From NCBI GenBank assembly GCA_902500205.1, contig GCA_902500205.1_4868.1: DNA of 64,000 nt; one strand, given 5' to 3'. Position 1 is the first letter of the stretch, and each line of letters starts with the position of its first letter. This stretch comes from Escherichia coli (GTDB taxonomy: Bacteria > Pseudomonadota > Gammaproteobacteria > Enterobacterales > Enterobacteriaceae). The notes under the pieces are model-generated. The model did no database searches. It had not been told where the DNA came from and saw only the letters and a program-made list of their open reading frames with translations. The position numbers and the translations under genes are program-made. This document shows, in pieces, positions 17,910 to 55,922 of the stretch.

Positions 17910-17935
17910 ATTTCAGATATATATTACCTAGGTGA
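17910..17935 (+). promoter_or_regulatory. Phage promoter-like element, class 1 (ATTTCAGATATATATTACCTAGGTGA)
   Basis: Exact 26-mer also at 27030 and, with one mismatch, at 55847; always after a terminator and before a gene. Confidence 0.55.
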
Positions 17936-18739: not shown

Positions 18740-18797
18740 ATATTACGTTAGCCTGAAACCGTATGTAATCGACCACTAATCTTAAGGAGTATTTATA

Positions 18798-26066: not shown

Positions 26067-26864
26067 ATGAAAGCGATTCACACCTTTCGCATGACCGGCC
26101 AAACTGTTCTCGACATTGATGCGTACGAAGCCGCTAATTTCACCAAACCGACCAAGCTCTGGGATCGCCTGGTTAAGGTACTGCCGCAAAGCGGTGAGGT
26201 GCAGTTGGATTTTGTCATGGCATCGACGTTGGATAAGACAGTGGCAGTTATTTATACTGCTGACGGTGTGCAGAGTAAGAAGGACCTGGCAATCGAAGAT
26301 AAAGGCGGGCTGGGTTATCACTTGTTCTTGCACTGCGTAACCACTGCACCGATTTCAGCAGCGCTGGCGGGTCAGTATGGTTTCGCGAATGCGTATTTCC
26401 TGGCACAGAAACTCGCCGTGAATGTTATTCCGGGTGACGTGACCACTTACCCTGAATACGTACAGCGTATCCTGCCAGAGCACTTCGCTGCAGACGACTA
26501 CGATTTCAACGTGTTCCGTTTCGCATTGATCGGCGAATCGCGCGATCCAGAATACACCGTTGGCTTGCGTGCTTGTCTGCGTCACTCCGTTATCTCTTCG
26601 GATGAAGGGATGTCGAATAACGTGAACGAAGTGTTCCCGATGATGCAAGTCGGTCCGTATATCACTTTCAACTCGTACATTCCGTTCCCGGCACAGATTC
26701 TGCCGCCACAGAACGATAACAGTGTACTGCCAATCGCCGATAAGTATTCACTGCGTGCGAGCGAAGCAGTTGAAGTGATTAACGATCGTCGCTTTACATT
26801 GTCAGTGACCAGCGGCATCAGTGAACCGGAAGTTGCGGTCTCTCAGAGCCTGGATTTGATGTAA
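26067..26864 (+). CDS. Hypothetical protein
   Basis: RBS CTTAAGGAAAATATT; 265 aa. Confidence 0.55.
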   Translation: MKAIHTFRMTGQTVLDIDAYEAANFTKPTKLWDRLVKVLPQSGEVQLDFVMASTLDKTVAVIYTADGVQSKKDLAIEDKGGLGYHLFLHCVTTAPISAALAGQYGFANAYFLAQKLAVNVIPGDVTTYPEYVQRILPEHFAADDYDFNVFRFALIGESRDPEYTVGLRACLRHSVISSDEGMSNNVNEVFPMMQVGPYITFNSYIPFPAQILPPQNDNSVLPIADKYSLRASEAVEVINDRRFTLSVTSGISEPEVAVSQSLDLM

Positions 26865-26871
26865 AAGTGTG

Positions 26872-26907
26872 CCTGGTCTCCTTGTGAGACCAGGTCTCTT
26901 TATTTTA
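26872..26907 (+). terminator. Rho-independent terminator
   Basis: Hairpin cctggtctc-cttgt-gagaccagg plus T-rich tail. Confidence 0.65.
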
Positions 26908-26908
26908 G

Positions 26909-27010
26909 CCCTCTAAACGCACTCACAACCTTCTAAAGCCTCTCTAACGGTAGAACGACCCTCTAAAGTGATAAAAGCTCTCAAAACGCGTTTGAGAGCG
27001 TTATAGAGGG
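26909..27010 (+). repeat. Intergenic direct-repeat block (CYCTCTAAA x4) with internal perfect palindrome and inverted terminal copy
   Basis: ccctctaaacg 26909, ccttctaaagcc 26929, ctctctaacgg 26940, ccctctaaagtg 26959, palindrome gctctcaaaacgcgtttgagagc 26977-26999, inverted ttatagaggg 27001. Confidence 0.5.
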
Positions 27011-27029
27011 TGTACTCTGAATAAAAATA

Positions 27030-27055
27030 ATTTCAGATATATATTACCTAGGTGA
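27030..27055 (+). promoter_or_regulatory. Phage promoter-like element, class 1
   Basis: Identical 26-mer to 17910..17935. Confidence 0.55.
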
Positions 27056-27106
27056 TAGAAGACAATCTATCAACTCAATCGACTATTAATCTAAAGGAGT
27101 ATTGCC

Positions 27107-27250
27107 ATGTTAACTCGTAACCATAAACGTGCCATCTTCGCCATCGTTGCTGTTGTTGCTTTCGCGGTACTGTCTATCACTGTAACTCAAGATTACAACA
27201 AGTGCATCGATAACGGTAACTCTGTTGCCATGTGTACAGGTCGCGGCTAA
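27107..27250 (+). CDS. Small membrane protein (47 aa, one TM helix); not in ORF track
   Basis: AAGGAG RBS; my translation MLTRNHKRAIFAIVAVVAFAVLSITVTQDYNKCIDNGNSVAMCTGRG; stop overlaps next start (TAATG). Confidence 0.5.
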   Translation: MLTRNHKRAIFAIVAVVAFAVLSITVTQDYNKCIDNGNSVAMCTGRG

Positions 27251-29072: not shown

Positions 29073-29219
29073 ATGAATACCTTTATGCAACAACTGCGTC
29101 AGCAACAGCTGAAACAAGTCGCTTTTCAACAACGTCTGCAAGAGGTTACCCGCCAACCGCAGACTTCCACCCGTACCATTAAAGGACTAGGAGGTGACAT
29201 CATCTTCAATAAGAAGTAA
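29073..29219 (+). CDS. Small Gln-rich protein, paralog A (48 aa); not in ORF track
   Basis: GAGG RBS; my translation MNTFMQQLRQQQLKQVAFQQRLQEVTRQPQTSTRTIKGLGGDIIFNKK; followed by hairpin 29228-29247. Confidence 0.45.
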   Translation: MNTFMQQLRQQQLKQVAFQQRLQEVTRQPQTSTRTIKGLGGDIIFNKK

Positions 29220-29331
29220 CACTAACCAGGGGTGTTCGAGCACCCCTTTTAACTCCCGTGACAGTATATCGGTGCATTGTGTACCACCACAGCGCAGCGA
29301 TATATTAACAACCTGCCTAAGGAGGCACTAC

Positions 29332-29478
29332 ATGGAACAACTACGTTCGCAAATACTTAACTATTACGTTAAGCAAACCCAATTCAACCAACGTGTACAA
29401 CAGTTGACTGCGCCCAAGCAGAACACTGTTCGTCGTATCAAGGGTTTAGGAGGTGAAATACTACTAAACAAAAGTTAA
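29332..29478 (+). CDS. Small Gln-rich protein, paralog B (48 aa)
   Basis: TAAGGAGG RBS; MEQLRSQILNYYVKQTQFNQRVQQLTAPKQNTVRRIKGLGGEILLNKS; about 40 percent identical to paralog A ungapped. Confidence 0.5.
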   Translation: MEQLRSQILNYYVKQTQFNQRVQQLTAPKQNTVRRIKGLGGEILLNKS

Positions 29479-55803: not shown

Positions 55804-55846
55804 ACAGATCGTAACAGTCTTATGCTTTTTGCTTCCAGTCCACTAA

Positions 55847-55872
55847 ATTTCAGATATATATTACTTAGGTGA
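55847..55872 (+). promoter_or_regulatory. Phage promoter-like element, class 1
   Basis: ATTTCAGATATATATTACTTAGGTGA; downstream leader AATCGACTATTAATCTAAAGGAGTATT shared with 27078 copy. Confidence 0.55.
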
Positions 55873-55922
55873 GAGTTACTACTAAACTCTCTAATCGACT
55901 ATTAATCTAAAGGAGTATTCTA

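Follow-up and report, generated by a model that had tools for sequence, protein, structure and literature searches.

The block analysed here, at positions 26909-27010, lies in a continuous stretch of 64,000 nucleotides (the window) that shows 98-99% identity to Salmonella phage SPN3US and its relatives, and that thus belongs to an SPN3US-like jumbo phage (Seoulvirus, ~240 kb, phiKZ-like). It occupies part of a 243-bp spacer, and no open reading frame (ORF) extends over it. On the left, a run of virion structural genes ends with an ORF of 265 amino acids (26067-26864), the homologue of SPN3US gp201, which is followed by an intrinsic terminator; 4 nt separate the end of this terminator from the start of the block, and every relative has an equivalent hairpin. 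On the right is a promoter of the AT-rich motif class that precedes the early operons of the virion RNA polymerase in such phages (PMC7598289). The preliminary description of this DNA had placed the block in non-coding sequence between a terminator and an early-type promoter, and that placement was borne out (Table 1). The promoter drives the operon of small genes that starts at 27107, and is probably the partner of the array described below. Among the neighbours of the block, which are the structural-operon gene and small ORFs, the small ORFs had no Pfam match and no initiator gene is adjacent; a gene for a DnaB-like helicase is found ~2.5 kb downstream.

Copies of the promoter recur in the window, one exact (17910-17935) and one with a single mismatch (55846-55872). 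A 27-nt leader with its ribosome-binding segment, AATCGACTATTAATCTAAAGGAGTATT, is also shared, being identical at 27077-27103 and 55893-55919 and present again at ~18767-18793, in each case 3' of an early promoter, which suggests that promoter and leader form a duplicated cassette ahead of different small early genes. In the relative SPFM2 (~660-720 of its locus; window ~27036-27062), a 27-bp tandem duplication of the promoter core GATATATATTACCTAGGTGATAGAAGA has given rise to two tandem early promoters. Farther downstream in the window, the ORFs at 29073-29219 and 29194-29478 have related C-terminal peptides (…RTIKGLGGDIIFNKK and …RRIKGLGGEILLNKS); the two ORFs correspond to the SPN3US gp195/gp194 pair and look like products of a tandem duplication.

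Table 1. Sequence features between the late structural operon and the early-type promoter, in window coordinates.
Feature	Position	Strand	Remarks
Intrinsic terminator, end of late structural operon	26871..26905	+	10-bp stem, 5-nt loop, T-run; left boundary of the element
Inverted motif copy 1, CCCTCTAAACGC, outer left end	26909..26920	-	9-mer invariant in SPN3US clade, adjacent bases vary
Inverted motif copy 2, CCTTCTAAA	26929..26937	-	20 bp from copy 1; invariant in SPN3US clade
Degenerate inverted copy 3, CCTCTCTAACGG (reverse complement of CCGTTAGAGAGG)	26939..26950	-	
Inverted motif copy 4, CCCTCTAAA	26959..26967	-	30 bp from copy 2; invariant in SPN3US clade; ACCCTCTA pairs 8/8 with TAGAGGGT at 27004-27011
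Conserved core: A-run 26973-26976 and three head-to-tail units A, B, C	26971..27010	+	Profile HMM; kept in five jumbo-phage genera
Core unit A, GCTCTCAAAAC	26977-26987	+	Degenerate in SPN3US clade
Core unit B, GCGTTTGAGA	26988-26997	+	Exact pattern match
Core unit C, GCGTTATAGAGGG	26998-27010	+	Exact pattern match
9-bp stem with 5-nt loop, unit A against unit B	26977..26999	.	Followed by TTTTAT on the minus strand; SPN3US clade only
Early-type (virion RNA polymerase) promoter ATTTCAGATATATATTACCTAGGTGA, 26 nt	27030..27055	+	Right boundary; recurs elsewhere in window

All features of the block are a single unit, GCGTTnnAGAG(G), that occurs in both orientations and in a 10-bp register. Four direct copies of CYCTCTAAA had been reported at first; three good copies of the CCCTCTAAA type (starting at 26909, 26929 and 26959) stood up to scrutiny, but the supposed fourth, CCTCTCTAAC at 26939-26948, has two mismatches and is variable among near-identical relatives. 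Exact matches to CYCTCTAAA number only two in the block, at 26909 and 26959, with CCTTCTAAA at 26929 carrying one mismatch. The copy starts, including the degenerate one at 26939, are multiples of 10 bp apart (20, 10 and 20). When one mismatch was allowed, four of the ten matches in the entire 64 kb fell inside these 102 bp, and as 300 second-order Markov simulations gave at most two matches per 102-bp span, the clustering is not due to chance. Positions 26940-26943, within copy 3, are the most variable stretch among close relatives, indicating that this copy is probably not under constraint.

On the right side of the block, what had been read as a perfect 23-bp palindrome at 26977-26999, an impossibility for a sequence of odd length, is in fact a perfect 9-bp stem (26977-26985 with 26991-26999) enclosing a 5-nt loop. 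The inverted copy of the repeat that had been noted at the right end is real, and the block ends are inverted with respect to each other, CCCTCTAAACGC on the left being the reverse complement of GCGTTTAGAGGG, compared with GCGTTATAGAGGG on the right. What the first reading missed is that one motif, in two tandem units, makes up both the 3' arm of the palindrome and the right-end copy, as GCGTTTGAGA and GCGTTATAGAGGG. With the degenerate unit A, these units form a series in which GCG recurs after 11 and then after 10 bp, which places all three units on the same face of the helix. The left 60 bp hold three good inverted copies and one decayed copy in the same 10-bp register as this core, and because of them the region is an imperfect inverted repeat of 100 bp. 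A profile HMM of the core had one match in the 64-kb window (nhmmer, 26971-27010, E = 2e-10). A general promoter motif was ruled out as an identity for the repeat, as GCGTTNNAGAG-type motifs elsewhere in the window occur at chance level.

Conservation of the block was assessed in spacers from five genera and from metagenomic (IMG/VR) contigs, in a comparison anchored on the gp201 homologue. Far from being absent or unconserved in close relatives, the block is present in every one of the 34 clade records with 80% or more coverage of a 601-bp query that spans it, as well as in SPFM16, and the core is conserved far beyond close relatives. It is kept in Seoulvirus, Erskinevirus, Machinavirus, Wellingtonvirus and unnamed IMG/VR relatives; outside Seoulvirus, where identity of the flanking gp201 protein drops to 47-58% and most of the spacer is unalignable, the 40-bp core is still there. 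The exception is the CR5 (Derbicusvirus) group, which is without the core and in which the terminator-to-promoter spacer of CR5 is "empty". The core consensus consists of the A-run and the units GCGCTTAGAA, (T/C)GCGTTnnAGA and GCGTyTnnAGrGG. Erskinevirus has four units with starts exactly 10 bp apart and the other genera have three, and unit A outside the SPN3US clade is GCGCTTAGAA, without the 9-bp stem. Machinaviruses carry at this locus a TCATTTATCGT box that is also seen ahead of the array at a second locus, described below.

Sixteen positions vary within the SPN3US clade. Fifteen of them are located in 26909-26979, where copies 1, 2 and 4 are free of variation, and one in 26980-27033; units B and C are essentially invariant. 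The left inverted CCCTCTAAA copies are specific to this clade. The functional core would be the promoter-proximal 40 bp, 26971-27010, to which the SPN3US clade has added the left copies.

Whether the block acts as RNA was considered in several forms, with the ~100-nt imperfect hairpin serving as a small RNA, as an RNase III processing site, or as a minus-strand antisense terminator made of the 9-bp stem and its U-run. The block does fold better than shuffled sequence, reaching -28.5 kcal/mol on the plus strand (z = -2.4) and -40 kcal/mol on the minus strand (z = -3.45; 0 of 200 shuffles as good), an excess explained by the clade-specific inverted copies. A terminator-like site was called on the minus strand at 26999-26977, in the SPN3US clade only, and no sigma-70-like promoter was called. 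In the wider family of arrays introduced below, an inverted arm upstream of the array reached z >= 3 in 9 of 43 non-redundant contexts, about a quarter of unrelated members, versus 2 of 43 downstream. Against these signals, Rfam 15 gave no credible match in the window (E <= 10) or in 16 related loci (E <= 1), and the analysis found no conserved flanking pair of promoter and terminator. The folding and covariation check that the preliminary description had proposed gave no support to its structured small RNA, RNAalifold returning 4 pairs, 0 covariations and -3.2 kcal/mol for 17 homologous regions, with no fold shared across genera; SPN3US-clade substitutions at 26978/79 and 26997, in the 9-bp stem, are not compensatory. 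The left arm is absent from most genera, from T5-like phages and from the second locus, and the strand that folds more stably varies among family members. Lying downstream of a strong terminator and upstream of a promoter, the block is also expected to be poorly transcribed. We therefore consider a function as RNA or as a single-strand structure to be very unlikely, with the folding of the block leaving a small chance of a hairpin role within this clade.

The spacer is a hot spot of indels and recombination. In SPFM16 (from ~1125 of its locus; window ~27028), homology stops ~20 bp past the block, and a promoter variant, TTTATAGATAGATATTATCTTAGGGAGAG, and an unrelated 232-aa gene take the place of the SPN3US-type sequence, which makes the boundary between block and promoter a recombination junction. 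Three other relatives, pEa_SNUABM_29, SPAsTU and pSal-SNUABM-04, have extra genes in the spacer. The SPFM16 switch and the empty spacer of CR5 are compatible with a selfish or recombination-prone miniature inverted-repeat cassette, similar to a MITE or to the "promoter-early stem-loop" of T4 and with no dedicated phage function. The inverted termini (CCCTCTAAACGC versus GCGTTATAGAGGG), a centre of ~60-70 bp, the occurrence of arrays in diverse intergenic contexts and in both orientations, and homing-endonuclease-like ORFs (identified by reading motifs) beside the array in some phages would all agree with such an origin. We nevertheless think it quite unlikely, as the core is kept at two orthologous sites across genera in which the flanking proteins are ~50% identical, a divergence at which neutral DNA would have been lost; the flanks show no evident target-site duplication, and there are only two to three copies per genome. 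No pair of filled and empty sites was found among close relatives, and a query with the P2-like group found nothing in the phage collection.

In the same three relatives no early promoter accompanies the array, which directly abuts the start of a gene whose product, 131-134 aa long, is made up of the Nlig-Ia NAD+-binding domain of NAD-dependent DNA ligases alone (PF22745, E = 1e-23 to 1e-27). This gene, annotated as "putative DNA ligase" (L006:1811-2206, L007:1805-2209 and L013:3434-3838), is absent from the window. In these phages the array runs into the ATG, and unit C (GCGTCTGGAGGC) supplies the ribosome-binding site. The block could on these grounds be an orphaned upstream leader of an Nlig-Ia gene lost from the SPN3US lineage, but the pattern of conservation contradicts this and we give it only a slim chance: the array is kept just as well in four or more genera without the gene, at the second locus and in unrelated mobile elements, whereas an orphan would have decayed.

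SPN3US contains a second full array at ~137.5 kb, ACGCTTTTAGAGA-GCGTTACAGA-GCGTTTTAGAGGG, between the gp108 stop codon and a bidirectional terminator. It is found at the orthologous site in pEa_SNUABM_29, SPAsTU and phiEaH2, with the TCATTTATCGT box at a fixed 13-15 nt ahead of it. A third copy, a single exact GCGTTTTAGAGGG unit, is found in 1.7 kb of gene-free sequence where the SPN3US record begins and ends, and each jumbo-phage genome has at least two arrays.

The relation of the array to the early promoter was examined across lineages. In every lineage the promoter follows the gp201 stop codon by 165-174 nt, a near-constancy that could reflect shared ancestry and not a constraint on phasing. 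The distance from unit C to the promoter core fell into two classes in 14 lineages, 38-41 bp in seven and 49 bp in the other seven, and these classes differ by 9-10 bp, or about one helical turn. The array is not itself an early promoter, members of that class having a ~10-nt AT-rich core of the TATATTAC type, and the promoter of the window is a separate feature. Neither the array motif nor the block is present upstream of the sister promoters at 17910 and 55846, and no promoter follows the second SPN3US array; promoter control therefore cannot be the function of the whole family.

That family, which we defined by profile and refer to as T5-IRD'-type triple-unit arrays, comprises three head-to-tail units of 10-11 bp, GCG(T/C)T-nn-AGA(G), after an A-run. 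The window block fits it by the HMM match given above, with units B and C exact and unit A degenerate, and by its non-coding position beside a terminator; T5 and the other members have the same layout, in non-coding DNA of mobile elements and typically next to an intrinsic terminator. The T5 array, AAACGCGTTAGAA-TGCGATCTAGGA-CGTTTTAGGC, is positioned just after an intrinsic terminator inside the annotated injection stop signal (iss), and corresponds to the IRD' of Davison. An exact degenerate pattern covering 22 positions retrieved 119 stretches from IMG/VR versus 12 for the same pattern reversed, and 86 of the 119 versus 0 of the 12 controls could be extended to at least 31 of 41 HMM positions; the IMG/VR and BLAST searches were seeded with our own consensus, so that the boundaries of the family are biased towards it. 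The contexts of the IMG/VR stretches were overwhelmingly intergenic. A 44-nt consensus matched 595 phage records, among them T5-like phages of Escherichia, Salmonella, Klebsiella and Pectobacterium, phiTE-like and other 140-150-kb phages, and 121Q-like jumbo phages.

The array also occurs in 1017 of 5426 E. coli genomes, where it is accessory (islands, prophages and plasmids); a copy in the host core genome that might hint at a host regulon was thereby ruled out. Plasmid records with the array numbered 449 in PLSDB, and in the plasmids examined it lies in non-coding origin regions. Matches in a collection of one bacterial genome per species were near chance, with 20 of 113 loci convincing, mostly from Enterobacterales, Vibrio and Haemophilus. 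Across contexts, array orientation is unrelated to the orientation of flanking genes, and no common neighbour gene emerged, the flanking ORFs including baseplate, lysozyme, RNA polymerase, homing-endonuclease-like and Rep proteins. The arrays are unannotated in nearly all records examined; literature searches returned nothing relevant on the motif sequence itself and were uninformative on IncX4 and iterons. Metagenome-assembled genomes of Oscillospiraceae, Alphaproteobacteria and Muribaculaceae (L199, L200 and L223) contain longer, simple tandem runs of four to five copies of 10-bp GCGTTAGAGA-like units, which may be kin or chance repeats.

The plasmid contexts bring in the main rival explanation, in which the array would be a protein-bound site associated with replication or DNA entry (an origin accessory, priming or roadblock site) that acts on replication or genome delivery. 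On IncX4 plasmids, six 22-bp iterons and a DnaA box are ~560 bp away from the array; on the 2-kb iteron plasmid pRGI01177, the distance to four 22-bp iterons and an A-rich tract is ~250 bp, and on a 9-kb plasmid the array precedes rep by 180 nt. In an island of E. coli JKHS004 (L160:2840-3020), a 1.5-kb non-coding region next to a serine recombinase gene contains three ACCTAGGAAATGAGTTCC copies and, after them, a very AT-rich stretch; at ~600 bp from the array, this arrangement looks like an iteron-type origin, either of a satellite or of an island. The gene-free region of SPN3US (L032:60-240 and L035:38084-38614) has a ~100-bp near-palindrome of extreme AT-richness, flanked by GC-rich CGCGTGCGCG-type runs and ~500 bp from the single GCGTTTTAGAGGG unit, and it too looks origin-like; literature searches found nothing on an SPN3US replication origin. 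The T5 array within IRD' has DnaA boxes, noted by Davison, adjacent to it, and the helicase gene downstream of the block can be added to this list.

Other observations are at odds with this explanation. The units measure 10-11 bp and not the 17-22 bp typical of iterons, and the block has no adjacent initiator gene. Its sole AT-rich neighbour is the promoter itself (27020-27047), leaving no separate unwinding element. No GC-skew turning point was found, no similarity to the complementary-strand origin of G4 is apparent, and each jumbo-phage genome has at least two arrays. The genomes of SPN3US-type phages are circularly permuted, so that an entry-order signal of the iss kind makes little sense here. 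In T5, the mapped origins are in the middle of the genome (Davison, bioRxiv 10.1101/866236). These observations cut both ways for the replication/packaging-related site that the preliminary description had offered; a role in replication or DNA entry is, in our estimation, unlikely.

The reading we prefer, and to which we would give an even chance, is that the block is a DNA-level cis element and not an RNA gene: a landing pad, in phase with the helix, from which a sequence-specific DNA-binding protein would modulate or insulate the junction of terminator and promoter. Of the three options that the preliminary description had offered for the block, its "iteron-like protein-binding array" fits best, in view of the phased 10-11-bp units, the conservation without covariation and the independence of orientation from transcription. 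Conserved positions that are periodic, the helical phase, the lack of covariation, the independence of orientation and an inverted partner that is optional together lead us to infer a DNA site read by a protein. Binding would be cooperative, with one protomer per unit on one face of the helix, and would probably bend the DNA. Locally, the bound array would most likely modulate or insulate the junction between late terminator and early promoter, whether through activation or repression of the promoter or through a block to read-through, as is suggested by its position between the two and by the quantised spacing.

The binder is more likely to be encoded by the host, or to be a protein very widely shared among mobile elements, than to be specific to SPN3US, because nearly the same 33-bp array is found in unrelated elements without a common neighbour gene. 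More tentatively, it is possible that the 33-bp array is a hitherto unrecognised, portable cis element of the mobile elements of Enterobacterales and some other Gammaproteobacteria that recruits one conserved host protein, and maybe that it is the real determinant in the T5 injection-stop region; we find this conceivable but less likely than not. None of the sites known to us for DnaA, IHF, Fis, PhoP, PmrA, RcsB, OxyR, PurR, the marbox, boxA, ops, XerCD or Type I restriction convincingly fits the motif. That unrelated phages, plasmids and islands retain 33 bp near-unchanged implies that they share an interacting partner, as yet unnamed, and offers a small target for a probe. The identity of the binder would bear on the mechanism of the T5 iss, an open question since the 1980s, as well as on the boundary between late and early transcription units in jumbo phages with their own RNA polymerases, for which we know of no trans-acting regulators or replication origins. 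It is also a caution for annotation that such arrays go unannotated.

Several known systems resemble the block in part. Correia, ERIC and T4 "PeSL" cassettes are intergenic units of 100-150 bp with inverted ends that occur in either orientation and form hairpins if transcribed, and they share with the block these ends and orientations, an association with terminator and promoter junctions, and the shuffling of genes. They differ in being present in tens of copies per genome, as opposed to two to three, and the window element is kept at orthologous sites, with only its three-unit arm universally conserved. Iterons, such as those of the lambda origin, R6K gamma and Rep_3 plasmids, are likewise non-coding direct repeats that are often phased, and related arrays are found within a few hundred bp of plasmid iterons; however, iterons are 17-22 bp long, are bound by an adjacently encoded Rep and abut an AT-rich unwinding element, and in the plasmids examined the arrays are a feature separate from them. 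The 11-bp parC repeats of R1, which flank a promoter and are bound by ParR, the Cox boxes of P2 and the X1-X1.5-X2 sites of lambda Xis are head-to-tail repeats of 9-11 bp, spaced by about one turn and bound cooperatively with bending of the DNA. The likeness claimed to these systems is one of layout, short phased repeats that are often beside or overlapping a promoter; in each of them the binder is encoded by an adjacent gene and serves one element, whereas the array of the window is common to unrelated elements.

In the T5 iss region (L159:2590-2900), ACTGTATAAATATACAGT and repeated GAGAATCATTATCATT adjoin the array; the former reads like a LexA box and the latter like Fur boxes, and the region may be a cluster of sites for host proteins. 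T5 IRD' lies in Repeat Region 3, or iss, of the left terminal repeat, with an inverted partner ~3 kb away, and Davison considered that the function of the repeats in this region cannot be guessed despite their extreme conservation (Davison, bioRxiv 10.1101/866236). T5 and the window have in common the same three-unit array after a terminator in a large non-coding region, an inverted partner, and a conservation that exceeds that of neighbouring genes. In T5 the partner arm is ~3 kb off, and the array sits in a first-entering terminal repeat beside DnaA boxes; in the window the partner arm is 60 bp off, the genome has no fixed end, and the array faces a promoter of the virion RNA polymerase. The three-unit core array of the block recurs nearly unchanged in the T5 injection-stop region, as it does in other large phages, in IncX4 and small plasmids, and in E. 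coli islands.
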